From contig JAPLZC010000006.1 of the NCBI GenBank assembly GCA_026395215.1, forward strand, positions 8,081-72,080: 64,000 nt of DNA, written 5' to 3'. Below, in pieces: positions 443 to 39,667 of the stretch; positions within the stretch are counted from its first letter, which is position 1; each line of letters opens with the position of its first letter. The stretch is from Candidatus Staskawiczbacteria bacterium (GTDB lineage Bacteria; Patescibacteriota; Minisyncoccia; Minisyncoccales; Staskawiczbacteraceae). Both the position numbers and the translations under genes were made by a program. The notes below the pieces were generated by a model. It saw only the letters and a list, made by a program, of their open reading frames with translations, searched no databases and was not told where the DNA came from.

Positions 443-1408
443 ATGAATGATTTTTCTACAATATCTATAGAATATCTAAAAAAAATTACATCAATAATTG
501 GGAGTGTTTTTTTGTTGATAATTTTTTATTTATGTTTTGAAATTTATGTCCCGGTAAATCCGGCCTCTCATGAAACAATTGTCTATACGGTGCAGAAAGG
601 TTGGGGGGATAGTGACATTGCTAATAATCTAAAGCAATTGGGTATAATTAGGAGTAGTTATTTTTTTAAGTTTTATGCGGTGTTGTCTTTAAAACATTCG
701 GGTTTGCAGGCCGGAGAATATAATTTGTCTCCAAGAGATTCTATTCATGAAATTGCCAACAAAATGGCTAATGGGGATGTTATAAGGGATAATGTTGTAA
801 TCTTGGAGGGCTGGGACGTAAGTGATATTGGCCAGTATTTAGAGTCAAAAGGAATATGTAAAAAAGATTATTTTGTTTCTCTTGCAAAAGGTCACGAAGG
901 CTATATTTTTCCGGACACTTATGAGATTGCCAAAGGAGAAACCTGCGAAGGTATTTTGAGTTTGGCGTTGGCTAATTTTGACAAAAAACTAACGCCGGAA
1001 TTAAGAGCTGAAATTATTAGCCAGAAAAAATCAATTTTTGATATTGTTACAATGGCCTCAATGATTGAAAAAGAAGTAAGAAGTTTGGATGACAAAAAAA
1101 TTGTTTCAGGTATTTTGTGGAAAAGGTTAGCCATTGATATGCCTTTGCAACTAGACGCAACAATTGTATATATTACCGGTAACGCCCAGATTACAGCAAA
1201 AGATAAATTAATAAACTCTCCATATAACACCTATAAATATTATGGCCTGCCAAAGGGGCCAATTTCAAATCCGGGCATAGACTCAATTACTGCTGCCATT
1301 TATCCAACAAAAACAAAGTACTGGTATTATTTAACCGACGGCATAACCCATTTTAGTGAAACCCTAGATCAGCACAATGCCGCCAAAGCCAAGTATTTAG
1401 GTAGGTAA
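443..1408 (+). CDS. mltG: endolytic murein transglycosylase MltG (YceG-like)
   Basis: N-terminal TM helix. Motifs HEGYIFPDTYE, ASMIEKE and NSPYNTYKYYGLPKGPISNPG are typical of the YceG/MltG family. Confidence 0.9.
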   Translation: MNDFSTISIEYLKKITSIIGSVFLLIIFYLCFEIYVPVNPASHETIVYTVQKGWGDSDIANNLKQLGIIRSSYFFKFYAVLSLKHSGLQAGEYNLSPRDSIHEIANKMANGDVIRDNVVILEGWDVSDIGQYLESKGICKKDYFVSLAKGHEGYIFPDTYEIAKGETCEGILSLALANFDKKLTPELRAEIISQKKSIFDIVTMASMIEKEVRSLDDKKIVSGILWKRLAIDMPLQLDATIVYITGNAQITAKDKLINSPYNTYKYYGLPKGPISNPGIDSITAAIYPTKTKYWYYLTDGITHFSETLDQHNAAKAKYLGR

Positions 1409-1413
1409 AACGC

Positions 1414-1554
1414 TTGACATATAATTCAAGATAGATTAAGATACAACTACAATTAATTAAAGCCATAGACAATGGGTCGCGAAAGCATAAATCCCATCGA
1501 GGCAACTCAACTAGTTTTATACTAGTTATTGCTGTCTGTGGAGACAGTTTTTTT
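1414..1554 (+). promoter_or_regulatory. rplJ promoter and structured leader with a terminator-like hairpin abutting the start codon (L10-leader-like)
   Basis: TTGACA 1414-1419, 17-nt spacer, TAAGAT 1437-1442. Stems atggg/cccat (1472-1497) and aactagt/actagtt. Hairpin ctgtct/agacag 1532-1547 followed by a T7 run 1548-1554 directly before ATG 1555. The position matches known L10(L12)4 autoregulatory leaders. Confidence 0.5.
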
Positions 1555-2049
1555 ATGGCACTAAATAAAGAACAGAAGACAAAGCAAATAGATAGTATTA
1601 AAGAAAGTGTTGCAAAACAAAAGTCGGTAATTTTTGTTGATTTTGCGAAGGTTCCTTCAAAGGAAATGTTTAGTTTGAGAAAATCTTTGAAAGAAGCTGG
1701 GTGTAAATTAAAAATTGCCAAGAAGACATTGGTTAGAATTGCTTTTGGGCAATCAAACATTTCATTTTGGAACAAAATGAAAGCAGTTATTCCTGGACAA
1801 TTAGCCTTGGTTTTTGGAATTGAAGATGATATAGCTCCAGCAAGAATTGCCAATCAGTTTTCAAAAACAAATGAAAATCTTAAGATTTTGGGAGGAATAT
1901 TTGAGAAGAGATTTATTGATAGAGAAAAGGTATTGGTATTAGCCAATTTACCTACAAGAAACGAGCTATTGGGCAGATTGGTCGGCTCTATATACAGCCC
2001 AGTGTCAAGCTTTGTAAGAGTATTAAATAAAATTAGCGAAAATAAATAA
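1555..2049 (+). CDS. rplJ: 50S ribosomal protein L10
   Basis: 164 aa, directly upstream of L7/L12. Typical L10 N-terminus (KEQKTKQIDSIKESVAKQKSVIFVDF). Confidence 0.9.
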   Translation: MALNKEQKTKQIDSIKESVAKQKSVIFVDFAKVPSKEMFSLRKSLKEAGCKLKIAKKTLVRIAFGQSNISFWNKMKAVIPGQLALVFGIEDDIAPARIANQFSKTNENLKILGGIFEKRFIDREKVLVLANLPTRNELLGRLVGSIYSPVSSFVRVLNKISENK

Positions 2050-2667: not shown

Positions 2668-3165
2668 ATGGCAACAACAAAACTGGCCAGCACGTTCACT
2701 GGGGTTCGGTACAACATTGGCGTGAGACTAGACCAACTTTTGTCGGTTGGAGACTATTTTCGAAAGGCGGGTCTCGCTGGTGATGACGAAAGGGATATTG
2801 TTGATACGTCCGGATGGAATATGAAGAACAAAACGGTAGGTGTTCGCGTTTTCGTTCCATCTGGCAATCACGGTGGAAGAAGTAATTACGAAATCTTCTG
2901 GGAGGAGATGGGCAAATTTGGTGTTACTAAAAAGAATATACGGCATGCTGAAGCAGTAACTCTACGTTGCCCGCCGGCGCCGGAACCGTGCACGGATGAT
3001 GGATATCTTGGGACTTGCTCCATATGTGGGGAAGAACACCCAGTGATTGGTCCTATTGGAGCAGAGAGGAAATTCCTTATGGGGCGTCATACTCCCCATG
3101 GTGATGATTCTAGCCTCTGTAGTGGCACTTCTGCGCTTCCCAATGGTGAAGTGCGGCGTAAATAA
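2668..3165 (+). CDS. hypothetical protein, GC-rich cassette a (165 aa, Cys-containing C-terminal half)
   Basis: ATG preceded by AAGGAGG at 7-nt spacing. GC-richer than its neighbours. Own terminator downstream. No family recognised. Confidence 0.6.
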   Translation: MATTKLASTFTGVRYNIGVRLDQLLSVGDYFRKAGLAGDDERDIVDTSGWNMKNKTVGVRVFVPSGNHGGRSNYEIFWEEMGKFGVTKKNIRHAEAVTLRCPPAPEPCTDDGYLGTCSICGEEHPVIGPIGAERKFLMGRHTPHGDDSSLCSGTSALPNGEVRRK

Positions 3166-3204
3166 CCATAGTACCTGATTTTCAGGTTGTTGCTTTGCAA
3201 CGGC

Positions 3205-3232
3205 GTCCCGATGTCACATCGGGACTTTTTTT
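3205..3232 (+). terminator. rho-independent terminator after cassette a
   Basis: gtcccgatg/catcgggac 9-bp stem, 3-nt loop, T7 run. Confidence 0.8.
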
Positions 3233-3244
3233 ATAAATTGATTG

Positions 3245-3272
3245 TTGACAAATTGGGGACTTCTGGTATACT
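3245..3272 (+). promoter_or_regulatory. sigma70-type promoter of cassette b
   Basis: TTGACA 3245-3250, 16-nt spacer, TATACT 3267-3272. The leader contains a perfect 10-bp hairpin gtagcgattt/aaatcgctac at 3309-3348. Confidence 0.55.
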
Positions 3273-3405
3273 TAAAATATTAAATTGTTCTTTGAAATTT
3301 GATTCTCGGTAGCGATTTGGAAATAAATATTTGTTTTTAAATCGCTACTGAGACAGTGGCCATGTGGGAACAAGTCCCTCATGAACCTGGAACGGGAGAA
3401 CAGAA

Positions 3406-3888
3406 GTGAGCAGGAACAGCAAGAAGGGTGATGTCCAAACAATGTCGTTAAGCCAAGGTGTGATGTTGGCGATCGACATGAACCGTGAAGCCTTGTTGAA
3501 GGTTAACGGTGGAATTCTGCACGGAATGCAGGTTAACATGGAGCTTGGCTCTGAGAGACCGGGTCGTTCGATTTTGGATCTGAGGAAGGATCCGTACTTC
3601 GACGCCGCGACCAAGGACGAGACCATACGGGTGATCACCTTCAACGGCTCAGCCATGGGCCGTAACGGATGGTTCCGTTTTACCAGCATCTGCATAATCA
3701 GTAATTTTGTGCAGAAGATGTGGGACCCGTGGTTCGTCGACGTCAAAATCGAAGACTCCGACAAACTCCGGTTCACATACGTCAGGGACCACGAAGGCTT
3801 GCCGGTTATGATTGACTGGCACGCGGTCTCAGACGATTACCCGCCTCTTTCGGAGGATACGGGCACTGAGGATGCGGACGAGGAGTAA
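3406..3888 (+). CDS. hypothetical protein, GC-rich cassette b (160 aa from GTG 3406; alternative ATG 3442)
   Basis: GGGAG lies 8 nt before GTG 3406, and GAAGGGTGA lies before ATG 3442. GC-rich coding composition with an acidic C-terminus. No family recognised. Confidence 0.55.
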   Translation: MSRNSKKGDVQTMSLSQGVMLAIDMNREALLKVNGGILHGMQVNMELGSERPGRSILDLRKDPYFDAATKDETIRVITFNGSAMGRNGWFRFTSICIISNFVQKMWDPWFVDVKIEDSDKLRFTYVRDHEGLPVMIDWHAVSDDYPPLSEDTGTEDADEE

Positions 3889-3900
3889 TATCCGCTTTAA

Positions 3901-3948
3901 AGCGCCGGAAGAGTGAGAACATCTCACTCAACCGGCGCTGTTTTTTTT
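3901..3948 (+). terminator. rho-independent terminator after cassette b
   Basis: Nested stems agcgccgg/ccggcgct and gagtgag/ctcactc followed by a T8 run. Confidence 0.85.
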
Positions 3949-3977
3949 GCAAAAAGATGGTAGAATTGTTTAATAGG

Positions 3978-4002
3978 TTAGAGGGCAGTTAGTTCACTGG
4001 TA
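3978..4002 (+). repeat. degenerate duplicate of the tRNA-Val 5' end (left direct repeat of the GIY-YIG cassette)
   Basis: ttagagggcagttagttcactggta aligns with ttagagggcacgtagctcagctggtta at 4328-4354, about 21 of 27 positions. Confidence 0.6.
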
Positions 4003-5640: not shown

Positions 5641-8181
5641 ATGGATTTTTATTTTAAAAACACAAAGATTTTCTTAGCTTTAAAGAGGGCGCGATTTCCT
5701 TTATTTAGGTTCGCGGGATTTTTGAAAAATCTTTTTTTGGTTTTGTTTGTATTAGAAGCAATATTACTAGTGGTGGCGCAAAGCCATAATGCGGAAAAAA
5801 CGCTAATTTTATTTTTATTGTTGTATCTTGTCTTTTGGAATTTTGAGTTATTTTTGAGGTTGAAAATAAAAAGACCAAGCACTAATTTAAAAATTGAAGG
5901 TGCTGTTTTAAGCCCCAATGATTATAATCTGGCCGAGCTTTTAAGTTTTAATATGGCCACGGTTGTTTTAGAAGCAATAAATTTTTCTAAGAAAAAGAGA
6001 ATTCCAGTTAGTTCAACATCACTTCTTTATTCTGCGGTAAGGTATGGTAGAGATGTAAATCTAATTTGTTTGCGTTTAGGAATAAATCCTAAAAAATTGC
6101 AATCTGATATCAAAAATTATTTAGAAAAAACTGAGAAACATAATGTTACTGGGGAATTGTTTTCAGAAGATTTTAAAAAAGTAATAAGTAACGCGCTTAA
6201 ACTATCTGCGGATAGGGGACATAAATATATTGGGCAAAATGAGGTTTTGGTTGCTTTAGCCAAAGAAGATGATTTTTTTAAAAAAACACTGGTAGAGTTT
6301 GATCTCAAACCCGAAGATGTTGATAACTTAACATTATGGGTATCTTCGGCAGTAGATTTGGCAGATAGTAATAAAAAGTTTTGGACTTATGAAAATTTGG
6401 CGAGAAAAGGGTCGCTGGGTAAGAATTTTTCATCAGGATATACCATAACACTGGATAAATATGCAATTGATTGGAGAAAATATGTTTCGCAATGGAGGTT
6501 TACGGAAATTATTGGTCATGAAAAAGAAATAGACCAAGTTGAGGTAATTTTGGCAAAATCTAGTATGGCCAATGTGTTGATTGTGGGTGACGCGGGGGCA
6601 GATAGAAAAAGTATTGTTAAGGCAATAGCTCACAAATGTTATTTGGGAACAACTTTGCCCGAGTTAAACAACAAAAGGGTTGTGGAGCTAGATGTTGTTT
6701 CATTGGTTACCCAGATTTCTGATTTTGAAAAAGTAGAATATGTGCTAGGCCAGATTTTTTTGGAAGTTGCAATGTCAGGCTCTGTGATTTTAGTAATTGA
6801 TAACTTAGAAAACTTTGTGGGACAGAATGTGCAAAAAGCCGGCGCATTTGATATTTCAGGAGTGCTTTCAAAATATTTGCCTTTGCGTAACTTTCAGCTT
6901 GTTTGTTTGACTTCTCAAGATGGCTTGCACAAAAACATAGAAAAAGAGGCAGGGCTTGCTAATTCATTTGGGAAGGTTGAGGTTGTAGAAGTCACAGAAT
7001 TAGAAACAATAAATATTTTGCAATCAGTTGCTTTGGATTTGGAATACGTGCATAAGGTTTTGGTTTTGTATCCTTCTATTCGTGAGATTGTAAATTTGAC
7101 CGCGCGATATATGCCAAGTTTGCCTTTTCCTAAAAAGGCTTTAGATGTTTTGGAGGAATCAGTTGTCTACGTGCAAAAATTACGCGAAAAAATTGTTTTG
7201 CCCCACCACATAGCTGAAATTATTTCTAAAAAAACAGATATACCTGTTGGAAAAATGGAGGTAAAAGAAAAAGAGGTTTTGCTTAATTTGGAAAATTTAA
7301 TTCATAACAGAATTGTTAACCAAGAAGAAGCGGTTAGCCAAATATCTATTGCAATGAGGCGAGCCAGAATGGGAATTGCCTCAAAAACAAGGCCAATGGG
7401 AACATTTTTATTTTTGGGCCCAACGGGAGTGGGCAAGACTGAAACTGCAAAAGCTTTGGCCCAAATATATTTTGGATCTGAGAAAAAAATGATAAGGCTT
7501 GATATGTCAGAGTTTCAGGCAATTTCAGATATTCCAAGATTATTAGGAGCTACTTCTCCGGTTGAAATGCAAGGACTTTTAACAACACCTGTTAGAGAAG
7601 CACCGTTTTCTCTAATTTTGTTAGATGAAATAGAGAAAGCCCACCCTAATATTTTAAATTTGTTTTTGCAGGTTTTAGATGAAGGCCATATAACCGACGG
7701 GCAGGGCAGGAAAGTTGTTTTTGCAAATACAATTATAATTTGTACATCAAACGCCGGCGCCGATATGATTTTTAAGCAAGTAGAAGCTAGTCAAGCAGTT
7801 GAGAAAGATAAATTACTAAGTTCTCTCTTCGAAAAAAATATTTTCAGACCGGAATTTGTAAACCGTTTTGACGCTACTATAATTTTCCATCCTTTAACAA
7901 AAGACAACTTAATGAAAATTGCTCAGTTGTCTTTGCAGGGTTTACAAAAAGGTTTGAAGGAAAGGGATATAGATTTTATAATTACAGAATCACTCAAAGA
8001 AAGAATTGTAGAATTATCTTATAAGCCCGAGTTCGGCGCCAGAGAAATGCGAAGAGTTGTCCAAGATAAAGTGGAAAATGCGGTTGCCACAGCTCTTCTA
8101 TCTGATAAAATAAAAAAAGGAGATAAGTTTGAAATTAACCCAGAAAATTTTGAAATATTTATAAATCCCCCAAAGCCGTAA
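5641..8181 (+). CDS. Clp/Hsp100-family AAA+ ATPase, membrane-anchored, with a degenerate first nucleotide-binding domain
   Basis: NBD2 has Walker A GPTGVGKT, Walker B LILLDEIEKAH, TSNAG and FRPEFVNRFD. The N-terminus has two hydrophobic helices. The NBD1 P-loop reads GDAGADRKS and its Walker B reads VIDNLE. Confidence 0.8.
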   Translation: MDFYFKNTKIFLALKRARFPLFRFAGFLKNLFLVLFVLEAILLVVAQSHNAEKTLILFLLLYLVFWNFELFLRLKIKRPSTNLKIEGAVLSPNDYNLAELLSFNMATVVLEAINFSKKKRIPVSSTSLLYSAVRYGRDVNLICLRLGINPKKLQSDIKNYLEKTEKHNVTGELFSEDFKKVISNALKLSADRGHKYIGQNEVLVALAKEDDFFKKTLVEFDLKPEDVDNLTLWVSSAVDLADSNKKFWTYENLARKGSLGKNFSSGYTITLDKYAIDWRKYVSQWRFTEIIGHEKEIDQVEVILAKSSMANVLIVGDAGADRKSIVKAIAHKCYLGTTLPELNNKRVVELDVVSLVTQISDFEKVEYVLGQIFLEVAMSGSVILVIDNLENFVGQNVQKAGAFDISGVLSKYLPLRNFQLVCLTSQDGLHKNIEKEAGLANSFGKVEVVEVTELETINILQSVALDLEYVHKVLVLYPSIREIVNLTARYMPSLPFPKKALDVLEESVVYVQKLREKIVLPHHIAEIISKKTDIPVGKMEVKEKEVLLNLENLIHNRIVNQEEAVSQISIAMRRARMGIASKTRPMGTFLFLGPTGVGKTETAKALAQIYFGSEKKMIRLDMSEFQAISDIPRLLGATSPVEMQGLLTTPVREAPFSLILLDEIEKAHPNILNLFLQVLDEGHITDGQGRKVVFANTIIICTSNAGADMIFKQVEASQAVEKDKLLSSLFEKNIFRPEFVNRFDATIIFHPLTKDNLMKIAQLSLQGLQKGLKERDIDFIITESLKERIVELSYKPEFGAREMRRVVQDKVENAVATALLSDKIKKGDKFEINPENFEIFINPPKP

Positions 8182-8200
8182 ATTAAATTCTAAATTAAAA

Positions 8201-8225
8201 CTCGGGCAAACAAGCCCGAGTTTTT
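8201..8225 (+). terminator. rho-independent terminator after the clp-like gene
   Basis: ctcgggc/gcccgag stem, 6-nt loop, T5 run. Confidence 0.8.
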
Positions 8226-8263
8226 AGTTATTGACAAATTCGTAAAATGCTATAAACTGGAGT

Positions 8264-8323
8264 GACAACTCTGGTCTTTGACATTTTACAGTTTTTATCT
8301 TTGCCCGCAAAGCAAAGAGCTGT
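8264..8323 (+). repeat. 60-nt shared 5' leader, copy 1 (upstream of the FucI-like gene)
   Basis: gacaactctggtctttgacattttacagtttttatctttgcccgcaaagcaaagagctgt is identical to 10157-10216 except for one A/G difference. It starts at the predicted +1 of a TGcTATAAA extended -10 (8248-8256). It contains the ctttgc-cc-gcaaag inverted repeat. Confidence 0.85.
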
Positions 8324-8359
8324 TTTTGTGTTGAAGTCCAGAAAGCAGGGGAGTAGGAA

Positions 8360-10015
8360 ATGAGTAGTTCAAAGTTATATCCGCCGATAGTATTCGGCGT
8401 GTTTGGTACATTCGATCCGCGACTGGATGGCGCTGGCCCTCAGGACCGCGAACGGTCGAACTTCATCGTGAAAATGACCGCGGCAATGATTGCGGATCAT
8501 GTGAAAATGCCGGACGGTAATCCGGTGAACGTGTTTGAACCAAAAACCTTGGTTGGTGGTGAAAGGGATGCTGACATTGTCGCCGGAATGTTCAAAGGTG
8601 CCGGCGTGCAAGTTCTTGTTTGCGTTTCCGACACCTGGGCATATCCCGGCAAGACCGCGATTGCACTGGCAAATCACTTCCCAAACGACATGCCCCTGCT
8701 TCTTCTCTGCGGTAACTCGGCGCCCAAACCGGGAGTGGTTTTTGACCACGCCTGCAGCGGTGCCTTTGCGCAGATGGGACGCAAGGCTTATCTCATTGTT
8801 GGTACCTGGGACGATGTTGGCCAGAAACCGGTGATGACCGTAGAGACCGCCAGCGAACTGATTTCCTGGTGCTACGGCATGTTGCCCAAAGCCGGCTGGA
8901 AGGGAAAGCGTCTGCTTTTCCACGGCGCTCATTCCATGGAAATGGAAACTGCGATGGCGCATGTCATTGCTACCCGGAATCAGTTCGGGGTGCATATTTC
9001 CATGAACGACATGACCGAAGTCTCCGACCGTCTCACCAAGCGAGAGTACAGCGATTCCGAGCTTTATAACCTTCGCAGATGGATGGACAGGATGCTCGGC
9101 AAACGCATTCAGATTCGGAATGTCGAAGATGAGGGAAAATTCCAGCAAGAGCTGGCTATGTACCTCATCACGCGTAACCTCATGAACGAGGTCAATGCAA
9201 TCGGCGGCGGGTTTATGTCTCAGCTCTCGTGGGGCTCGGACAAACGCATTTTGCCTCGGCCGGTTGCCGATGCAATGGAAAGTCTTCACAACAGTACATT
9301 TGACCATAACGGCCCCAAAACACCCAGGCCCTATGCAACGGAGTCAGACGCACAAGGCGGGTTGACAATGTTGCTGCAGTTCTGGATCTCCGGCGGTATG
9401 CCTCCGCTTTTCGCGGACTTCCGCAAGGTGTGGGAGGCCAATGATTTGGCTGATGTGGCCGCCAGTCTGAAAGTGGTACTCTCTGATGATGGGTGGGCCA
9501 AGCGAGGAATTGTTGATTACGACAACTCCGGTTCGGCCTCGTTCAACTGGGCTGGAAAACCCGGCATGACGGCCGAGGAATGCACGGCCAAGGTCTCAAT
9601 GCCTTTGGCTGATGAATTTTATTTTCCCGGCGGAGGTAACAGTGTGACATTCATGACTCCTGGCGACATTGACATGTTGACCGGCCGGCTCTGGTATGTT
9701 CAGTCCAAAGACAGGTGGGCGCTTACCTGGGACGACGCAGTTACCTGCGAACTTCCCGCTCCGCTGGCCAACAAACTCGCCAGTCTGTCTTCGCCTGGCT
9801 GGCCACACACATGGGTCATGTTTAAGAACTTTGAGCTGGCGCTGGTCAAGCACATTTCGCCCGCCAACCACTGGCACGCAGTCTGGAACACAGACCGCCG
9901 GCGGCTGATGTATGCCATGGATGCCTTGGGTATCCAGGACCTGCATGCTTCCAAGTTCCCAGCGTACACCCCCGGGCACGACATCCCGCCAACACTGCTT
10001 TCGCTGATCAAGTAG
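8360..10015 (+). CDS. L-fucose isomerase family protein (FucI-like aldose-ketose isomerase), GC-rich cassette c
   Basis: These blocks align with E. coli FucI as I recall it: NSTFDHNG..YATESDAQGG (NSSFDWNG..VATENDSLNG), FADFRKVW (FADVRTYW), DNSGSA (INSGSA), FPGGGNSVTF (FRGGGYSSRF), WPHTW (WPTTW) and ANH. GGGGAG lies 6 nt upstream of the ATG. Confidence 0.8.
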   Translation: MSSSKLYPPIVFGVFGTFDPRLDGAGPQDRERSNFIVKMTAAMIADHVKMPDGNPVNVFEPKTLVGGERDADIVAGMFKGAGVQVLVCVSDTWAYPGKTAIALANHFPNDMPLLLLCGNSAPKPGVVFDHACSGAFAQMGRKAYLIVGTWDDVGQKPVMTVETASELISWCYGMLPKAGWKGKRLLFHGAHSMEMETAMAHVIATRNQFGVHISMNDMTEVSDRLTKREYSDSELYNLRRWMDRMLGKRIQIRNVEDEGKFQQELAMYLITRNLMNEVNAIGGGFMSQLSWGSDKRILPRPVADAMESLHNSTFDHNGPKTPRPYATESDAQGGLTMLLQFWISGGMPPLFADFRKVWEANDLADVAASLKVVLSDDGWAKRGIVDYDNSGSASFNWAGKPGMTAEECTAKVSMPLADEFYFPGGGNSVTFMTPGDIDMLTGRLWYVQSKDRWALTWDDAVTCELPAPLANKLASLSSPGWPHTWVMFKNFELALVKHISPANHWHAVWNTDRRRLMYAMDALGIQDLHASKFPAYTPGHDIPPTLLSLIK

Positions 10016-10052
10016 CGACCAGTTGGTGGTAGTCATACATAAAAATATCCTT

Positions 10053-10096
10053 ATCCTTGTGTAGTCTCTTCGGAGATTGCGCAAGGATTTTTTTTG
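10053..10096 (+). terminator. rho-independent terminator after cassette c
   Basis: 16-bp stem including G-U pairs, with a TTCG tetraloop and a T8 run. Confidence 0.85.
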
Positions 10097-10156
10097 CATA
10101 AAAACTATTGTGCGACAATTTGTTTGACAAAAGAGGAAAATAATGTAAAATAATAA

Positions 10157-10216
10157 GACAACTCTGGTCTTTGACATTTTACAGTTTTTATCTTTGCCCG
10201 CAAAGCAGAGAGCTGT
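10157..10216 (+). repeat. 60-nt shared 5' leader, copy 2 (upstream of the XylA-like gene)
   Basis: Same 60-mer as 8264-8323 with one substitution. Preceded by TTGACA 10124-10129, a 16-nt spacer and TAAAAT 10146-10151. Confidence 0.85.
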
Positions 10217-10252
10217 GTGGTATTTAGGCTAGAGAGAAAGAAGGCAGGAACA

Positions 10253-11386
10253 ATGAAGCGGCAAATGTTTAATCGTGGGCCAGTCACACAAAGGTCAATG
10301 CCTTTTTGGCCGTTGCAGTACCGCGGGACAGATCCTTTTGGCGGTCCGATTTTGGGCGCCATGGATTCATTGGAAACAGCCGATCTGCTGTGTTGGGCGG
10401 GAAAAGAAGGATTCATTGAACTAACCTCGGCCCATGATGATGACTTGGTGCCGTGGAATCCGAAGAGGCCGGAAGACGACCTGGATAAAAGCGGACTAGT
10501 CTACGGACGGCTTATGGAAATCCGTCAAAAACTCGACGCCGCCAACGTGGGTTTTCACATGGTTACCTGTTGTCTGCACGGAGACCCTATGTTCCGGCGC
10601 GGTGGGCTAACCAACCCCGATCCGAAAATTCGTGAACTGGCTAAGCTCAAAGTTCAGCGCACTTTGCGCATTGGCAGTATGCTCGGCGCCAAGCGGTTCA
10701 CCTACTGGGTGGCCCGCGACGGTTTCGAGGTGATGATCACTGTCGATCCGAAGGTGATGGACTGGTTGGCTGAAGGGTTGAATAGCGCAATCAGCTACAT
10801 GACTGAGGCCAGTCTGGACTACGATATGGCCACAATTGAACCCAAACCCAACGAACCGCGCGGACACATGTACCTGCCAACAGCAGGTCATGCCGCGGCC
10901 TTCACTCAAGCTCTCAACGAGCCAGGTTTCTGGAAAGTGAATCCGGAATTAACCCAGCACGAAGGTATGGCTGGGCTTGACCCGATTACTTGCATTCGCC
11001 TGCTCGTCAAGCTCGACAAATTGGGATTCCTACACTTCGGCAACCAGATTAACGGTCAGTTCGACAACGATTTTCCGCCGTTGGTTGGCCCGGAGCATCT
11101 CAAAGAAACAGCCGAGATGTTCCGCGTGCTTGAACAGCTCGGCTGGAAAGGTGTGGTTGAATATGACTGCCACGCATTGCGTTCTGAATTGAATCCGGAT
11201 GATTCGCTCGGATGCAAGAAGGACTTCATTGTAGACTGCACCATGGGCCTTTCCATCTCGCTCAAATTGGCGGAGCGGATTAAAAGCCTTGTGTTCGGCA
11301 TGCGCGAGAGCCAAGCTGATCTCAATTCGATTATGTTGCTTTGCAATCTTTCAGACGAAGATGTTAGTCATTACCTTGTTCGATAA
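10253..11386 (+). CDS. xylose isomerase-like TIM-barrel protein (divergent XylA family), GC-rich cassette d
   Basis: Blocks AHDDDL (XylA FHDxD), YWVARDGFE (FWGGREGYE), IEPKPNEP (EPKPxEP), NPELTQHEGMAGL (NIExNHAxLAGH) and FDNDFPP (WDTDQFP). Start taken at ATG 10253, with GAAGG upstream, rather than GTG 10217. Confidence 0.7.
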   Translation: MKRQMFNRGPVTQRSMPFWPLQYRGTDPFGGPILGAMDSLETADLLCWAGKEGFIELTSAHDDDLVPWNPKRPEDDLDKSGLVYGRLMEIRQKLDAANVGFHMVTCCLHGDPMFRRGGLTNPDPKIRELAKLKVQRTLRIGSMLGAKRFTYWVARDGFEVMITVDPKVMDWLAEGLNSAISYMTEASLDYDMATIEPKPNEPRGHMYLPTAGHAAAFTQALNEPGFWKVNPELTQHEGMAGLDPITCIRLLVKLDKLGFLHFGNQINGQFDNDFPPLVGPEHLKETAEMFRVLEQLGWKGVVEYDCHALRSELNPDDSLGCKKDFIVDCTMGLSISLKLAERIKSLVFGMRESQADLNSIMLLCNLSDEDVSHYLVR

Positions 11387-11413
11387 AAGCAGGAAAACAA
11401 ACATTTGAAATGG

Positions 11414-11443
11414 CCCCGAGTTAACAGCTCGGGGATTTTTTTT
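11414..11443 (+). terminator. rho-independent terminator after cassette d
   Basis: ccccgag/ctcgggg stem, 7-nt loop, T8 run. Confidence 0.85.
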
Positions 11444-11477
11444 ATGTCTATCCGTGGTAGACAGGCGACAGAGGGGC

Positions 11478-11637
11478 TTGACATAAAAGTGTAACGGAGT
11501 AATATAAAGCCATGAATAAAAACTTTGCCCTATTGTTAAGCTTGTTGTTATTGGACAAACAGTCTAGGGGGTTTTTGATAAAATAAACACAAAATAAAAT
11601 TACATATCAAAAAATCCTCCTAGAAAGAGGATTTTTC
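11478..11637 (+). promoter_or_regulatory. promoter plus a leaderless Leu-rich leader peptide and terminator/antiterminator (putative attenuator) of cassette e
   Basis: TTGACA 11478-11483, 16-nt spacer, TAATAT 11500-11505. ATG 11512 sits at the predicted +1. The 24-codon ORF 11512-11586 is MNKNFALLLSLLLLDKQSRGFLIK (8 Leu). Terminator hairpin atcctc/gaggat is at 11614-11632 followed by TTTT. The upstream ctaggggg (11564-11571) can pair with cctcctag (11616-11623). Confidence 0.45.
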
Positions 11638-11687
11638 AGTGTGTAATTTTGTCAGCACTTTCACAACTCAAAGAAAGGACGGATCCT

Positions 11688-11969
11688 ATGTCCATTGTCA
11701 CAACAAAAGAACTTACGCACAAATTCGTCGTTCCAACAACGCGCCACCCAGAGTACGGTTGGTTCTATGCTTTCGTTTTTAGCGTAGATCAAAACGAAAT
11801 CTGCAAACTACTTGCGTGGTGGAGTGCGAATATTTGTAGAGAGATTTGGGTGCCAGTGGGAACAATCGAGTCGTTCACGTTGTTTGATAATGATAAAGAG
11901 GCTAAAGCATGTTTAGAAGAAAGAAAATCGGCCTCATCCAATCCAAAAGGTTGTCGGCTTCGTTGCTGA
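11688..11969 (+). CDS. hypothetical protein, GC-rich cassette e (93 aa)
   Basis: ATG 11688 preceded by AAAGGA at 8-nt spacing. Own terminator. No family recognised. Confidence 0.55.
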   Translation: MSIVTTKELTHKFVVPTTRHPEYGWFYAFVFSVDQNEICKLLAWWSANICREIWVPVGTIESFTLFDNDKEAKACLEERKSASSNPKGCRLRC

Positions 11970-22247: not shown

Positions 22248-25200
22248 ATGGCAAAAACTATAAAAAGAATTTTTAAGTCACAAGCTGGTAAAATAGCAAT
22301 CGGCGCAAGTGTTATATTAACCATTTCATTGGTCACCGTCGGCGTCTTAACCGGTTTTTTTATCCCCGCCGGAAACGCTTTAGCAGCAAGAACAGTAATG
22401 TCTGTAAACTTAAATGGTGTAGCGATGTCTTCGGGTAATAGTATTATTGTTGGGGGGGGGTGGAGTAACAATTTCTGCACAAATTAACGTTAATAATGAT
22501 GGAGGAAGTGATTGGCAATCAACTGGATGGAGAATTTCTACAACAGCTCCAGGTTCTTATAATTGTATAAATCATACAAACCATAATGGTAATGGTAGTT
22601 ATGCGGAAACTTTTAATGTAGCGGCTCCATCAGGTACAGGGACTTACGATGTTTATTTTAAGGCTTTTAGTGACAACTCTTGTGGTTCTGGCAGTTCTGG
22701 CAGTTTTTCTTACAATGACGGTATTGTTGTTAATCTTAAACAGATAACCTCGGCGACAGTTAATGGAGGTTCGAGCGTGACGGTTGCTCCAGGCGCCTTG
22801 ATCTCGACAGTTGTTAATCTTACCGCAACCGGTACTGGTAACGACAATTATTGGAGCTCGACTTCATGGAGGTTATCAACAACTGCTCCAGGGTCTACAA
22901 CCTGCGTAAACACTTCTCCAGATTCAAACACAGCAGGAAATTATACTTCTAACGCTTTTAATGTTACGGCCCCTGCTAGTTCTGGAACATACAATTTATA
23001 TTTGATCGCAAGAGAAAATAATTCTTGTGGCGGTGCCTCCAGTTCAGTGTATACATTATTAGGCGCAGTAACAGTTGTTACCGATAGTACCCCTCCGACA
23101 GTTTTGAGTATTGTCATGGATGATACTGATTTTAAGATTGGAGACACAGCTCAAGTTGATATTACGTTTTCAGAGGCAGTTACGGGTTTTGATAATAGCG
23201 ACATAACAACAATAGATAACGGTACCTTAACACCAGTATCTTCATCTGATGGCGGAGTAACTTGGTCAGCGGTATTTACTCCCACAAACGATATTGAGGT
23301 TCCTGCAGATCCATTTGGAATACCATCGAAAAACTTAATAGTTGTAACTTTGACTGGCTTAGCTGATTTAGCCGGAAACGCCGGAGTTGGGACAGAAAGA
23401 TCGAGCTATTATTCAATAGACACAAAAGCACCAGTTTTGACTCTACCTTCCAATATTACAGTAGAAGCTACTGGCCCAAGTAGTGCAGTGGTTACATGGG
23501 AGGCATCGGCAACTGATTTAGATCCAGCCAATCCAACGGTAACTTGTGCTCAGAGTTCTGGTTCAACTTTTTACCTTGGATCAGAAGGAGTTAATTGCTC
23601 TGCTACCGATACCGCTGGCAACACAGCCACTGGTGGTTTTAGCGTAACAGTGCAAGATACTACTCCACCAGTATTGACAGCTCCAGCTGATCAAACCTTT
23701 GAGGCAACTGGATCAATTGATTCTTATTCATTAGTTTTGGCAACAGCTACTGATATTGCTGACGCAAGCGTAGATATTGATTCTAATCCAACTAGTTTTC
23801 CATTAGGAACAACCCTTGTTACTTGGACCGCAACTGATGATTCTGGTAATACAGCCACAGCTACTTCTAATGTGACTATTGTTGACACTACCGCACCAAT
23901 AATTGCTTTAATGGGTAACAATCCTTTTGATTTATATATTAACAATGATTACTCTGAACCTGGATTTTCTGCTGTAGATATTGTTGATGGTGATATAACA
24001 GGAAGCGTTACTGTTGAGGGAGAAGATTTTGACAATACTGTTTTGGGAGCACATATTATTACTTATAGTGTTACTGATGCTAATGGAAATAGCACAAGTG
24101 TGACTAGAACAGTAAATATTGTTGATAGAAATAAACCGATTATTTATAGAGTTGGCGCCAGTCCATTAACAGTTGAAGGCGGATCAACTTACACCGATCA
24201 AGGGGCAACAGCCATTGATAGAGACGGGTCTGATATTACTTCATCAATTATTACAGTAAACCCAGTAAATACCGTTGTTTTGGGTGGTTATACCGTGACA
24301 TACGATGTTACTGGAGCTGAATTAGGTGATTTGACTGGGACAAATATTGCAGACCAGGCAAAGAGAATCGTGAATGTTGTTGATACTACTGCGCCGATTA
24401 TCTATGTAGATCCAGGCGCTGTAAATGTTAATGTTGGCGATTCTTATATTGATACTGGAGTAACAGCTTCTGATATTATTGATGGTGATTTAACTTCTTC
24501 AATTGTAAGAAGCGGGACATTCACCGACACGTCAACACCTGGAACCTACACTATTCTTTATGACGTCTCAGATTCTGCTGGAAATCCCGCAATAACGATT
24601 CAACGATCAATCAACGTAGTTGTTCCCGACACCAAGGCCCCAGATCTTACCTCTGCAGATTTGATTGATGGTATAACAATAACAGCCTTCTTTGATGAAA
24701 ATCTCGACGACGATGCATTACAGGCAGGCGACTTTGGAGTTAAAATAAATGATATTGGTGAATTTATTTATCCAATTAGTGCGGTTGATGACAATGGCAC
24801 TGTCACATTAATATTCACTGACAGTTTCGGAACTGCCAATTCTCTTAAACTTTATATTAATCCTAATACACCAATGAGTATTAAGGATATTGCTGGTAAC
24901 GAACAAACAGGTTATTATGGAGTAACCGTAAATGACAAAATTAAGCCAGTTATTACCTTAACCGGTGACGCTACTGTAAATCTATTTGTTGGTGGTTCTT
25001 ATATAGAAACTGGAGCAACTGCTAGTGACATCATTGACGAATTAATTACAGTTACAGTTACGGGTACAGTTGATACAAATACAGTTGGAACATATACTAT
25101 ATATTACAATGCATCTGACTTGGCTGGTAATCCTGCAAATGAAGTAACTAGAACAGTTAATGTTAATTTGCAACCGGTAAATGGTGGGTGGTCGGATTGG

Positions 25201-26001
25201 GGGACTTGTTCGGCAACTTGTGGAGGTGGAACACAGACTAGGACTTGTACAAATCCAACTCCAGCTAATGGAGGTGCTACGTGTGTAGGTGAAACAAGCC
25301 AAACATGTAATCCACAATCGTGTGGTGGAGGTGGAGGGGGAGGAATAACGTTGGCTCCGGAATTGATGATTTCGGGAATTGCTTCTACGGGTGTTACAAC
25401 AGATACATTGACTCTTACATGGACAACTAACTTGCCTGCTAGCAGTTATGTAATTTACTCGGCAGAAGGTGAAAATCATACATTAAATATGGCAGATAAT
25501 GCTGGGACACCGCCATTGTTTGGATATGCTCACGCAACAGCAGAGCTTGATACAGATCCAAAGGTTACATCGCACACAGTAGTAATTACAGGTTTAACAC
25601 CTTTTACAAATTATTACTTTAGAACAGTTTCAAGAGGGTCATTGGCCGTTAGTGGAGAATATAAAGTAACAACTCCAGCGGTATTGGCAGCAGCAACTGT
25701 GGCAGCTGCCTCAGAAGAGGTGAGCGTTGCCCCAGAGGGTGCAGAAAACAATGGTGCAACAATTGCTCCTCAAATTGAAGAGGTGGCAGGGACAGAGGCA
25801 GTTAGTCAAACAGAAGTTCAAACAGAAACTCCAGCAGAAACAGTAGTGGGAGAAAATCAAGCTACAGATGATTCCAATCTATATGCAGCTGGATTTATGG
25901 GAGCTGCTGGTAAATATTTCTGGCCGTTGTTAATTATATTAATAATTGTTATAATAGGGTACGGAGTTTACTACTTTATAATTAAGAGAAAGAAAAAATA
26001 A
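22248..26001 (+). pseudogene. giant surface/adhesin-like protein interrupted by a frameshift at a G9 tract (signal-anchor exon 22248-22487, body 22447-26001)
   Basis: The N-terminal ORF has a signal/TM segment. The body has 2 N-terminal repeat modules, Ig-like, HYR-like and about 5 DUF5011-like Ig repeats, a TSP1 repeat, an FN3-like domain, an Ala/Glu linker and a C-terminal TM plus KRKKK. The repeat-module alignment continues across the frameshift. Confidence 0.75.
22452..22460 (+). repeat. G9 homopolymer at the frameshift point of the giant surface protein
   Basis: Nine consecutive G. Removing one G (or adding two) fuses ..[10 protein letters not shown] to [10 protein letters not shown].. 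in frame. Confidence 0.9.
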
Positions 26002-38899: not shown

Positions 38900-39667
38900 A
38901 TGGCTTATATACGTCCACAATTAATTAATGATGAATATTATCATATTGTAAGCAAAACTGTTGGTGATACGGTTGTATTTGAGAAGGAGGACGATTTTTT
39001 TCGAGGTATTTTTTCTATTTATGAATTTAATAATGCTAACCCCGTAAGCATATCTCGGAGACGGCGTGATCGTAAAACGGAAAAGAAACTAGAAAAACAA
39101 AATGTTCAACGTCCGACGTCGAACAATTTAGTTGATAAAAGAGATAGATTTGTAGATATTCTTGCTTTTTCTTTTATGCCGAATCATTTGCATTTAATTT
39201 TGAAACAGTTAAAGGACAACGGAATAACTGAATTCATGAAGAAGGTTAACGGTGGGTACGCAAAGTATTTTAATGAAAGATATAAAAGGCAAGGGCATTT
39301 ATTTAATAAGTTTCGAGCAGTGCACATTGAGGATGACAATCAACTGGAAACCGCCTTCGTGTATGTGCATACGAATTTGATATCTATGATAAAGCCTGGT
39401 TGGAAAGAAAAAGGAATAAATAATTCTGATAAAGTAATAAAATTTTTAGAGAATAATAAGCGGCATAGCTATATGGACTATCTTGGGAAAAAAGCCTTTC
39501 CGTCCGTAACACAAAGAGAATTTTTTCTGGAAGCTATGGGCGGGGTAGATGGATGTAAAACATTTGTTGATGCACGGATAAATCATAAAAAAGAATTAAA
39601 AGACTGGAGTGATATTGTTCTAGAATAATTAAAATTGTTCAACGTCGGACGTCGAACAACTATATTT
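38839..39667 (+). mobile_element. HUH/RAYT-like element with REP-like terminal hairpins inserted in the 5' end of thpR
   Basis: Bounded by 41-bp imperfect direct repeats (38798-38838 / 39668-39708). Hairpin H1 is at 38846-38876 and H3 at 39635-39659, with their loops inverted (tccga versus tcgga). The internal copy H2 is at 39103-39125. Confidence 0.6.
38900..39628 (+). CDS. HUH Y1 transposase-like protein (IS200/RAYT family)
   Basis: HUH motif in FMPNHLHLILKQ and a Tyr motif in FVYVHTNLI. 242 aa. Confidence 0.65.
   Translation: MAYIRPQLINDEYYHIVSKTVGDTVVFEKEDDFFRGIFSIYEFNNANPVSISRRRRDRKTEKKLEKQNVQRPTSNNLVDKRDRFVDILAFSFMPNHLHLILKQLKDNGITEFMKKVNGGYAKYFNERYKRQGHLFNKFRAVHIEDDNQLETAFVYVHTNLISMIKPGWKEKGINNSDKVIKFLENNKRHSYMDYLGKKAFPSVTQREFFLEAMGGVDGCKTFVDARINHKKELKDWSDIVLE

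Follow-up and report, generated by a model that had tools for sequence, protein, structure and literature searches.

A structured 5' leader probably shared by a regulon of acquired sugar genes in Candidatus Staskawiczbacteria

Two neighbouring genes of Candidatus Staskawiczbacteria, one FucI-like and one XylA-like, are each preceded by nearly the same 60 nucleotides, and the question is why two unrelated sugar enzymes should begin their predicted mRNAs in the same way. The block was analysed in the window, that is, the whole stretch of 64,000 nt, in which the parts of the two gene units described below lie on the forward (+) strand. Rather than a repeat due to chance, it appears to be a shared control element that has not been catalogued before. 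In our reading, the 60-mer is probably the core of a cis-acting structured 5' leader RNA that marks a regulon of acquired sugar genes, served probably by one trans-acting factor. The observations behind this reading are the repeat, the promoter and terminator signals, the homologous leaders, the covariation and the strand asymmetry.

Two predicted transcription units and their common leader

The 60-mers at 8264-8323 and 10157-10216 are identical at 59 positions and differ only in A8315 versus G10208, the single A/G difference named in the original prediction. A 59-nt pattern allowed three mismatches or fewer was found at exactly two sites in the window and at none in 100 dinucleotide shuffles; the repeat is real and beyond chance. 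The match stretches to 93 nt with 85% identity (8231-8323 and 10124-10216), because the -35 TTGACA and the -10 elements of both copies are in register. Downstream, the 60-mer is separated from the ATG by exactly 36 unrelated nucleotides in both copies, close to the roughly 35 predicted. Covariance models for the leader were built in this analysis, and their hit on copy 1 covers 8264-8362 with 69.5 bits. With filters off, no third copy was found in the 64 kb, the next best site scoring 17 bits versus 70-76. A dispersed repeat or MITE was not indicated by the two copies in the 64 kb and the 10 kb beyond, both of which share the promoter offset and the distance to the ATG. No further leader copies were detected in about 600 kb (the window and 90 loci), and the generic dispersed repeat that was to refute the regulatory reading did not appear there.

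The upstream clpB-like gene (5641-8181), which encodes ClpB-type Pfam domains, ends in a terminator-like hairpin at 8197-8224 with an 11-bp stem followed by a T run. The promoter P1 follows at 8231-8258 (-35 TTGACA at 8231-8236, a 16-nt spacer, -10 TAAACT at 8253-8258; 10 of 12 matches in the promoter scan), and it lines up with P2 and the promoters of the homologous leaders. The TGcTATAAA proposed earlier at 8248-8256 is present and overlaps this -10. Copy 1 of the 60-mer comprises a 5' arm, the basal stem ACAGU/GCUGU, a 5-nt bulge and an apical hairpin; after it come a Shine-Dalgarno-like GGGGAG (8348-8353), unpaired in the predicted fold, the FucI-like gene (8360-10015, 551 aa) and a terminator with a 16-bp stem and T7 (10053-10088). 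The second unit repeats this order, with P2 at 10124-10151 (TTGACA, a 16-nt spacer, TAAAAT at 10146-10151; 11 of 12 matches), copy 2 of the 60-mer, the XylA-like gene (10253-11386, 377 aa) and a terminator-like hairpin at 11414-11434. The NCBI call for this gene is 373 aa from the ATG at 10265. In both copies the 60-mer begins 6 nt past the -10 of a TTGACA-16-TAAAyT promoter. The three terminator-like hairpins support two monocistronic units, and together with the promoter signals they bear out the proposal of two separate units sharing a leader from about the predicted +1. Beyond the XylA-like unit, the native mraZ promoter was placed at 11478-11505 by the promoter scan, and mraZ and rsmH were identified by Pfam; this adjoining promoter is without the leader.

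Encoded proteins and origin of the linked genes

The placement of both proteins in the FucI and xylose-isomerase superfamilies was upheld, profile and PDB matches being in agreement. The FucI-like protein has the three-domain N1-N2-C architecture (PF07881/PF07882/PF02952), with Fucose_iso_N1 (92.5 bits) and N2 (50.7 bits) above the cut-off and the C domain just under it (25.2 versus 29.3). It matches FucI and D-arabinose isomerase in the PDB at E 1e-30, and by profile at 6e-49, with homology to 1FUI, 3A9R and 4C20 over nearly the full length (residues 29-527 of 3A9R). The equivalog level of FucI was not reached with TIGR01089 and NF008220 (150 bits versus a cut-off of 775, and 124 versus 850). 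The catalytic residues and Mn ligands of FucI, which we take to be Glu337, Asp361 and His528 (E. coli numbering), are in part recognisable. In the alignment to 1FUI, ATEND is matched by ATE (E328) and FADVRTYW by (F/M)DFRKVW (D353), both invariant across 16 members of the family, which keeps Glu337 and Asp361 as E328 and D353; ANH (H504) is likewise invariant, and the HMM alignment ends before His528. As judged from its profiles, the protein belongs to the superfamily and is not a demonstrated L-fucose isomerase.

The XylA-like protein matches Pfam AP_endonuc_2 (PF01261) with 35.9 bits and the xylose isomerases of Thermus and Streptomyces at E 4e-42, nearly over its full length against class I enzymes (1BXB, residues 12-314; 1XIB). 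It is thus predicted to be a xylose-isomerase-like TIM barrel homologous to solved xylose isomerases, while the class I equivalog TIGR02631 was not reached (164.5 bits versus 447). The metal-site set E181, E217, H220, D245, D255, D257 and D287, with His54/Asp57/Lys183, was compared by alignment to 1BXB. E196, E232, H236, D271, D273, D305, H61, D64 and K198 are conserved and family-invariant, so that six of the seven ligands and the catalytic His/Asp/Lys are kept, and the complete two-metal site fails only at the equivalent of D245, a family-invariant His261. The several metal-site substitutions of the original prediction are thereby reduced to one, and the motifs given for them do not hold, since WGGREG (WVARDG here) is no ligand motif and the FDNDF of FDNDFPP retains both Asp. 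A His at the Asp245 equivalent is also found in the L-rhamnose isomerase of Pseudomonas stutzeri, a pointer to follow rather than a test. Against the FucI and xylose-isomerase structures, identity is only 25-40%, and the scores lie 3-7 times below the equivalog cut-offs.

Both proteins come from large uncharacterised families, in which most of the named members are of the PVC group, and PVC-group bacteria dominate the wider families of the leader-linked genes. The FucI-like gene has a GC of 0.55 and a GC3 of 0.64, the XylA-like gene 0.52 and 0.60; GC3 is 0.44-0.80 in leader-linked genes versus 0.22-0.38 in the neighbours that were measured in the window and the locus L038. Linked genes also stand at different chromosomal places in different genomes. 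By composition and relationship, the leader-linked sugar genes are apparently acquired from other bacteria. As predicted, the Pfam scan of 59 window ORFs turned up no sugar kinase, aldolase or sugar transporter.

Predicted fold and distribution of the leader

The predicted leader hairpin is rod-like and spans about 73 nt, and the 60-mer is its conserved core in both window copies. In the FucI-like mRNA (8270-8342; MFE -31.0 kcal/mol, z about -2.9 to -3.0), the rod has 28 pairs, five of them G-U, and the non-repeated stretch 8328-8342 serves as partner for the 5' part of the 60-mer; the form with the conserved bulge lies only 1.2 kcal/mol above the MFE. In the XylA-like mRNA (10162-10234; MFE -27.5 kcal/mol, z about -2.0), there are 26 pairs with six G-U, and the 5' arm is again paired downstream, here with a different sequence (10226-10234). 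In both candidate folds the change of A8315 to G10208 replaces a U-A pair by U-G, and pairing is kept. Three further elements of the original prediction exist in the window and are not conserved in homologues. The closing helix of acaactct with agagctgt can form, but when forced it reaches -11.6 and -9.6 kcal/mol, about 18-19 kcal/mol above the best folds; the internal TTGACA reads TTGCAC, TTTTAC or TTTCAC elsewhere; and the ctttgc-cc-gcaaag inverted repeat is not kept as sequence.

Homologous leaders were found on five other contigs, CPR-like by gene content (CPR, candidate phyla radiation) and standing for at least five further related genomes, where they sit behind TTGACA-type promoters. 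The leader precedes a FucI-like gene in L003, XylA-like genes in L006 and L099, a Gfo/Idh/MocA oxidoreductase in L016/L087 and a second xylose-isomerase-like TIM-barrel gene in L038. L016 (E 6e-4) and L099 (E 3.7e-4) were recovered by models built without them, and the L016 arrangement occurs in four independent assemblies and is therefore not an assembly artefact. Close homologues with unrelated or degenerate leaders also occur (L002, L005, the XylA-like gene of L038, and L094). The copies within a genome are near-identical and the leaders of different genomes differ; the cassettes also have similar promoters and terminators from one genome to the next.

All seven rods have z-scores of -2.1 to -4.2. 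Each hairpin contains 5-8 G-U pairs and the reverse complements fold 7-20 kcal/mol worse (for copy 2, -13.8 kcal/mol, z +0.56), which places the structure on the sense RNA. The U/C-rich 5' arm carries the motif yCUUUnAyA; the basal stem RCAG(U)/(G)CUGY is followed by a bulge of 4-6 nt on the 5' side only (UUUUA, UAUUA, UAGCA or UUUUC) and by an apical stem of 7-9 bp, and A-U and G-U pairs join the U-rich arm to a purine-rich 3' arm. Invariant nucleotides cluster round the bulge, and the helices covary. In the alignment A7 (seven sequences, 24 consensus pairs), which was fitted to the model and whose statistics thus lean towards structure, 87.4% of cells are paired compared with 80.1% in shuffles (0 of 500) and 42-59% in slid controls, and 11 of the 24 pairs show compensatory changes (1 of 500 shuffles). 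The sample consists of only seven sequences of six lineages, the majority of them probably close relatives. RNAalifold on a plain MAFFT alignment gave 24 pairs with eight compensatory. These homologous leaders, with compensatory changes before four gene families on five contigs, strongly back the idea of a common riboregulator.

No conserved expression platform was found across the leaders. A clear U run after the hairpin occurs only in window copy 1 (UUUUU, 8324-8328); in L006 a short UUUU lies two nucleotides past the hairpin. The Shine-Dalgarno sequence is free in both window copies, L003 and L006, and is overlapped by the base of the rod only in L016 and L038.

Possible function of the leader among known elements

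Rfam 15 gave nothing over the hairpins in 7900-11800 at E up to 10 except a chance-level Enterococcus-1 match (10076-10204; 17.4 bits versus a gathering score of 71.4, E 3.7), and, at E up to 1, nothing in L003, L016 and L038. When the whole window was scanned at the gathering scores, only tRNAs and the ribosomal protein L10 leader (RF00557, 1445-1562) came up. Like the L10 leader, our leader is a structured, covarying 5' UTR between promoter and Shine-Dalgarno sequence, for which protein binding and action after the start of transcription are presumed; unlike it, it belongs to no Rfam family and would control acquired sugar enzymes rather than the operon of its binder. Sugar-catabolic leaders of Firmicutes and enterobacteria carry RAT hairpins, which are bound by proteins of the BglG/SacY/LicT family, overlap an intrinsic terminator and act by antitermination. 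RAT is repeated in the leaders of several units, and one trans-acting protein thus controls a regulon. The leader is similarly an imperfect hairpin with asymmetric unpaired bases before several separate sugar units, whereas it has no conserved terminator, a much longer rod (26-32 bp) and no sequence resemblance to RAT; the Pfam scan of the window showed no BglG-type protein or PTS. A stem-loop tigRNA of TIGR-Tas has been described for the TasR of Ca. Staskawiczbacteria, with box C/D flanking two unpaired spacers, arrays near or inside tas, and CUU at the stem base (bioRxiv 10.64898/2026.09.09.750476). The leader has CUUU at the base of its inner helix. As a tigRNA it was rejected, for it has no pair of box C (RUGAUGA) and box D (CUGA), its would-be spacer positions are paired and conserved, and its units are single; no Nop-domain gene was recognisable by Pfam in the window.

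Stabilising stem-loops at the 5' end are known from the ompA, ermC and aprE leaders, which are gene-specific and not known as a conserved motif shared among unrelated genes or genomes. The leader resembles them in its position 5-6 nt from the predicted +1 and, in the window copies, in its accessible Shine-Dalgarno sequence; its imperfect duplex has the size of an RNase III substrate, rnc is present in related genomes, and the likeness of cassette promoters and terminators would suit a portable cassette. A constitutive 5' handling element of this kind, a stem-loop shielding foreign mRNAs from 5'-end-dependent decay or an RNase III site, with no signal input, is nevertheless unlikely, since a generic stabiliser is expected on other genes and the leader is absent from all other promoters in the 64 kb, while the covarying helices, the conserved one-sided bulge and its invariant flanking pairs exceed the needs of a stabiliser. 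We consider it quite unlikely that the core and the asymmetric bulge bind a sugar or sugar phosphate and, as a riboswitch, switch translation or mRNA decay of the regulon. Such a cis-acting structure upstream of metabolic genes with one pathway theme would fit the exclusive link to sugar-conversion genes of four families and the invariant nucleotides round the bulge amid covarying helices, and it would be new, with no Rfam match and, to our knowledge, no class of sugar-sensing riboswitch for comparison. However, the rod, conserved with covariation in seven sequences only, is unbranched, with no multi-helix aptamer, junction or pseudoknot; there is no conserved terminator or Shine-Dalgarno-sequestering alternative; the bulge varies in sequence and length; and near-identity within genomes with difference between them fits a genome-encoded partner better than a fixed ligand.

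A transcription factor on the palindrome and/or the TTTnACA direct repeats past +1 could instead block RNA polymerase: a roadblock repressor would fit well between +1 and +60, the CTTTnAyA of the 5' arm is conserved even in L094 with its degenerate hairpin, and the inverted repeats CAG...CTG are invariant. The pairing, however, tolerates G-U and not A-C, five of six reverse complements are poor folders (z +0.4 to -1.4), unlike what the symmetry of double-stranded DNA would give, A and G replace each other freely in the 3' arm, whose complementarity to U is kept, and the CTTTGC-CC-GCAAAG palindrome of the window varies. The operator co-control that had been offered beside a riboregulator is therefore disfavoured, the pairing being strand-specific with many G-U pairs, and we regard it as very unlikely. 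The least probable reading takes the repeat for a scar of gene arrival, through recent local duplication, gene conversion or the Campbell-type insertion of a circle (UTR-fucI-terminator-P2-leader) by recombination inside the leader, or, in an integron-like variant, the hairpin for a recombination site. Two direct repeats with sharp identity boundaries do flank exactly one gene module, the linked genes are compositionally foreign and differently placed, and an rve-type integrase adjoins the L099 copy. Sense-strand folding and conservation across genomes and families with compensatory changes are left unexplained, and an integron attC was rejected: the core sites RYYYAAC/GTTRRRY are absent, the sense strand folds, the hairpin lies 5' and not 3' of the ORFs, behind a promoter, and no IntI-type integrase is nearby, the only tyrosine recombinase being 40 kb away. 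The within-genome identity of 59/60 still exceeds functional need and points to recent duplication or gene conversion, and an arrival scar may account for it on top of a functional leader.

We infer that the leader is transcribed and regulatory, acting in the following way. Each acquired sugar gene would form its own unit of a near-consensus sigma-70-type promoter, leader, Shine-Dalgarno sequence, ORF and terminator, and the leader common to four gene families that are alike in function but not related to each other (FucI-like, XylA-like, Gfo/Idh/MocA and the second TIM barrel) would tie these units into a small regulon. The hairpin would most likely be the docking site for one putative trans-acting factor, probably a protein, which, by recognising the invariant core (CAGU / bulge / UC...GA-G-CUG), may jointly control how well all leader-bearing mRNAs are translated or how long they last. 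A bolder extension, which we hold to be unlikely, is that the leader represents a new regulatory RNA specific to CPR/Parcubacteria and fitted to each newly gained foreign gene, either as a sugar or sugar-phosphate riboswitch or as a handle for a dedicated RNA-binding regulator that 'domesticates' foreign sugar genes of high GC; the host-type cassette of promoter, leader and terminator would then be the unit of gain, and recombination within the leader would add cassettes.

Two predicted transcription units with a common leader

The 60-mers at 8264-8323 and 10157-10216 are identical at 59 of 60 positions, A8315 versus G10208 being the sole difference, and both start 6 nt past a -10 hexamer, at about +1, in agreement with the original prediction. 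A 59-nt pattern with up to three mismatches matches these two sites alone in the window, and nothing in 100 shuffles. A repeat search reports a longer similarity (93 nt, 85% identity), because the promoter hexamers upstream are in register in both copies. These are TTGACA (8231-8236) and TAAACT (8253-8258) for the first copy, and TTGACA (10124-10129) and TAAAAT (10146-10151) for the second, all on the plus strand and with 16-nt spacers. Between each 60-mer and the ATG of its gene, FucI-like (8360-10015, +) or XylA-like (10253-11386, +), lie exactly 36 nt, which are unrelated in the two copies. The clpB-like gene upstream, the FucI-like gene and the XylA-like gene each end in a terminator-like hairpin (8197-8224, 10053-10088 and 11414-11434, respectively), and downstream of the XylA-like unit lie a native mraZ promoter and the dcw genes. 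The two separate transcription units claimed earlier are thus borne out at the level of predicted promoters and terminators, and two monocistronic units with a common leader seem a fair description of these signals. An assembly chimera at the repeat is unlikely, since AT-rich promoter and terminator sequence surrounds both genes and cassettes of the same design are present in independent assemblies from NCBI, JGI, ENA and Logan.

When 59 ORFs of the window were scanned against Pfam, they gave an ordinary housekeeping set of the candidate phyla radiation (CPR), including ribosomal proteins, Mur ligases, FtsW, PBP, aminoacyl-tRNA synthetases and type I restriction-modification. The scan turned up no aldolase and neither a kinase nor a transporter for sugars, as had been noticed for the surroundings of the isomerase genes. 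Genes of mobile-element type are scattered through the window, namely an IS200-like Y1 transposase (38900-39628), a free-standing LAGLIDADG endonuclease ORF (51759-52253, minus strand), a tyrosine recombinase (52550-53521, minus strand) and a VirD4/TrwB-like coupling ATPase (32913-35408). A 1184-aa surface-type protein (22447-26001) with Ig-like, HYR, thrombospondin type 1 and purple-acid-phosphatase N-terminal domains may be relevant to epibiont attachment.

The isomerase-like proteins and their foreign genes

The 551-aa protein carries FucI domains N1 and N2, with a weaker match to the C domain, and aligns over nearly its full length with D-arabinose/L-fucose isomerase structures (E about 2e-30 alone, 6e-49 as a family profile); its score of 150 bits compares with an equivalog cut-off of 775. 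Of the FucI catalytic residues and Mn ligands (Glu337, Asp361 and His528, E. coli numbering), Glu337 corresponds to E328 and Asp361 to D353, both invariant, and the invariant ANH motif (H504), at a position outside the HMM alignment, is likely the equivalent of His528. The 377-aa protein matches class I xylose isomerases with E 4e-42. Mapping to the Thermus xylose isomerase places the ring-opening His/Asp dyad at H61 and D64, EPKP at E196 and K198, NPE at E232 and FDNDF at D271 and D273, together with H236 and D305, and all nine residues are invariant in the XylA-like family. Only one of seven metal ligands is altered, the Asp244/245 position being taken by an invariant His261, and not several as had been proposed. 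WGGREG, for which this protein reads WVARDG, is no ligand motif, and where this protein reads FDNDFPP the class I enzymes have F/YDQDL rather than WDTDQFP. The profile searches uphold the assignment to the FucI and XylA superfamilies; as judged from these alignments, both proteins are members whose catalytic machinery appears intact and whose substrates are unassigned.

Both isomerase genes are compositional aliens in the window, with GC of 0.55 (FucI-like) and 0.52 (XylA-like) and GC3 of 0.64 and 0.60, versus a GC3 of 0.22-0.31 in their neighbours. A second patch of raised GC (3001-4000; 0.48 versus about 0.35) has no match to the leader model, and its ORFs 2668-3165 and 3406-3888 have no Pfam match. 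A hypothetical protein of a Candidatus Staskawiczbacteria MAG has the same sequence as the FucI-like protein, and a scan of GTDB genomes seeded with the latter gave no confirmed relative. The wider families of both isomerases comprise thousands of sequences, and their named members, at about 52-57% identity, belong to Planctomycetota, Lentisphaerota/Victivallales, Kiritimatiellia and Verrucomicrobiota. The nearest relatives (60-76% identity) lie on contigs with CPR-like gene content, and the leader-linked genes retain a GC3 of 0.44-0.80 in AT-rich genomes despite 25-40% protein divergence among the CPR-like copies. None of 80 loci with a XylA-like gene, mostly non-CPR, has a FucI-like gene within 4 kb, so a donor operon is rejected as the source of the pairing; the pairing and the common leader apparently originated inside these CPR-like genomes.

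In relatives that lack AT-rich flanks (L013, L015, L017, L018; L008, L050; L071, L074), the XylA-like gene directly follows an SDR-type dehydrogenase; in others it directly precedes an oxidoreductase of the Gfo/Idh/MocA type or a xylulokinase-like FGGY kinase. Identified from the sequence alone, these neighbours give a hint of the pathway in which the XylA-like family may act.

Homologous leaders and their covarying structure

Leaders homologous to that of the window, a 5' hairpin of about 73 nt with the 60-mer as its conserved core, occur in other genomes. On L003, a Logan contig with AT-rich flanks, a FucI-like gene (76% identical protein) is preceded by a TTGACA-16-TAAGAT promoter and then by a leader alignable with the 60-mer along its whole length. 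On L006, an 844-kb scaffold with about 31% GC over the 17 kb read, the same leader precedes a XylA-like gene (60% identical) between trmD and a histidine kinase. Directly downstream of that gene (L006 9200-11400) are the HisKA histidine kinase and a stand-alone receiver gene, possibly a local regulator pair, and no such pair was seen in the other leader contexts. A first covariance model, trained on the window and L003 only, found the leader of L016 (E 6e-4), which is present in four independent assemblies and lies after the terminator of a XylA-like gene (72% identical) and before a Gfo/Idh/MocA oxidoreductase. In L038 a weak match of the same model (E 0.3), confirmed by inspection, precedes a second xylose-isomerase-like TIM-barrel gene; this gene lies beside a XylA-like gene and a kinase of the FGGY family, with greA and a tRNA upstream. 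The L038 contig (1-5799) has CPR-like gene content and also carries a 16S 3' end; all three of its sugar genes have GC3 of 0.65-0.80 versus 0.38 for greA, and the leader is on the TIM-barrel gene only. A second model found a leader before another XylA-like gene, in L099 (E 3.7e-4).

All eight copies score 53-90 bits with the final model. This model finds no further copy in about 600 kb (the window and 90 loci, mostly non-CPR relatives), in the 10 kb past the window end or, with filters off, in the window, and the motif is therefore not a generic dispersed repeat. It is tied so far to acquired sugar-metabolism genes of four families on CPR-like contigs. Exact and degenerate DNA patterns had no match in GTDB genomes and JGI metagenomes, collections from which the leader-bearing lineages are absent, and the model confirmed none of three pattern matches in viral contigs, which are ascribed to chance. 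Close homologues with different leaders also exist (L002, L005 and the XylA-like gene of L038). The leaders of these and of the relative L009 form hairpins that match neither the sequence nor the model and are not counted, even though the L005 hairpin has a 5-nt bulge. In L094, another relative, the 5'-arm motif is kept although the folded rod has decayed.

On the sense strand, all the leaders fold as rods of 26-32 bp (z -2.1 to -4.2 versus dinucleotide shuffles). An unpaired 5' tail of about 5 nt is followed by a U/C-rich 5' arm with yCUUUnAyA, a basal stem RCAG(U)/(G)CUGY, a bulge of 4-6 nt confined to the 5' side, an apical stem of 7-9 bp capped by a loop of 4-7 nt, and a 3' arm rich in purines. 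For the window copies, the fold of minimum free energy is in a slightly different register, and the conserved bulge form costs 1.2-1.8 kcal/mol more. The non-identical stretches 3' of the 60-mers, GUGUUGAAG.UCCAGA and AGGCUAGAG, pair with the same 5' arm. The original prediction had closed the block on itself by another helix, which reaches only -11.6 and -9.6 kcal/mol versus -31.0 and -27.5 for the best fold and is not conserved among the homologues. The CTTTGC-CC-GCAAAG palindrome and the internal TTGACA that it described are present in both window copies, but they are not conserved and are specific to the window.

In a plain MAFFT alignment of six leaders, RNAalifold gives 24 pairs, eight of them with compensatory changes. 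In the larger alignment, which is fitted to the structure and holds seven sequences from six probably related lineages, 87.4% of cells are paired versus 80.1% in shuffles (0/500 reach the observed value) and 11 pairs have double changes (reached by 1/500 shuffles); sliding the partner by 1-3 columns leaves 42-59% of cells paired. For example, the outer basal pair goes from A-U to G-C, L099 has CGG/CCG for CAG/CUG, and a pair of the apical stem goes from U-A to C-G. Between the two window copies, the change from A8315 to G10208 makes a U-A pair U-G. Each hairpin has 5-8 G-U pairs, folding of the reverse complements is worse by 7-20 kcal/mol (z +0.6 to -1.4, L038 excepted), and the 3' arm varies between A and G opposite a conserved U. 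Together these points indicate that the constraint acts on the transcribed strand as RNA.

Terminators after FucI-like genes and one XylA-like gene share CCCTTGCA...TTGCAAGG stems between genomes (window 10053-10088; L003 2120-2160; and the relatives L001, 1785-1815, and L009, about 1925-1960), and all five leader-linked promoters compared read TTGACAAA. The whole cassette of promoter, leader, ORF and terminator may therefore be an inherited or transferred unit. The window (443-2049) and L001 (8607-10339) have the yceG-rplJ synteny in common, and their FucI-like proteins are 72% identical. The FucI-like gene is on one side of the yceG-rplJ pair in the window and on the other side in L001, which indicates that the cassette moved.

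A candidate cis-regulatory leader RNA

The same structured leader behind separate promoters of non-homologous genes of related function is the signature of an RNA-controlled regulon in cis, and the leader is probably a functional cis-acting RNA of a sugar regulon. The common riboregulator first proposed is strengthened by the homologous, covarying leaders beyond the window, the regulation itself being what we infer; the observation is confirmed, with several of its details corrected. A DNA operator, by which the block would act as double-stranded sequence, is very improbable, as the A/G drift opposite a conserved U is permitted by RNA pairing and not by DNA symmetry. Slighter still is the chance that the repeat is purely a scar of insertion or duplication. 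The sharp 60-nt identity around one gene module could additionally record insertion by within-leader recombination, which is compatible with function, and near-identical copies in one genome, together with compensated divergence from one genome to another, agree with gene conversion, with co-evolution alongside a partner that the genome encodes, or with both.

As to how such an RNA might act, the leader would be a docking site for a trans-acting factor in preference to a metabolite aptamer, because it is an unbranched rod with a one-sided conserved bulge, invariant flanking pairs (C-G, A-U, G-C and U-G on one side, U-A and C-G on the other) and no expression platform. The bound factor would set translation or decay of the leader-bearing mRNAs. 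Binding of a protein is a tentative proposal, held at somewhat under even chances. It is unlikely that the rod serves as a constitutive stabiliser or an RNase III site, and a riboswitch, against which the unbranched rod and the missing expression platform argue, is doubtful to a slightly greater degree.

Several known kinds of element were considered and rejected. A U run for an attenuator follows the hairpin in copy 1 only. The Shine-Dalgarno sequence is free in both window copies, L003 and L006 and is overlapped only in L016 and L038, which does not make a conserved trap. As a leader peptide, the 18-codon TTG ORF in both window copies is rejected, because it has no Shine-Dalgarno before it, because the other leaders keep neither its start nor its frame or length, and because L006 and L099 lack it. 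As an internal promoter, the TTGACA within the 60-mer has no -10 at usable spacing and is not conserved. The leader also lacks the defining features of an attC-type site, of a MITE, and of a TIGR-Tas guide (tigRNA) or target; TIGR-Tas stem-loop guide RNAs with CUU at the stem base were recently described for Staskawiczbacteria TasR (bioRxiv 10.64898/2026.09.09.750476). No family of Rfam 15 matches the leader hairpins. The window also holds a known protein-binding leader, that of ribosomal protein L10 (RF00557, 47.3 bits, above the gathering score; 1445-1562), upstream of rplJ (1555-2049). The present leader would be a new family among cis-regulatory 5' leader RNAs, which are a known kind.

To our knowledge, almost nothing is known of gene regulation in CPR/Patescibacteria. 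In a 2024 review, riboswitches were raised only as tools for engineering into these bacteria (PMC11665869). The leader is a concrete and testable cis-element that links sugar-converting enzymes of four families, all acquired horizontally, across several genomes of CPR-like content. It offers a handle on the rest of the regulon, and hence on the pathway and its sugar, which is possibly host-derived, and a bait for a CPR RNA-binding regulator or ligand; we know of none described before. The finding also flags two large uncharacterised isomerase families with apparently intact catalytic sites. In bacteria whose regulation is essentially unexplored, this leader family gives some insight into how reduced genomes connect foreign genes to their own expression system.
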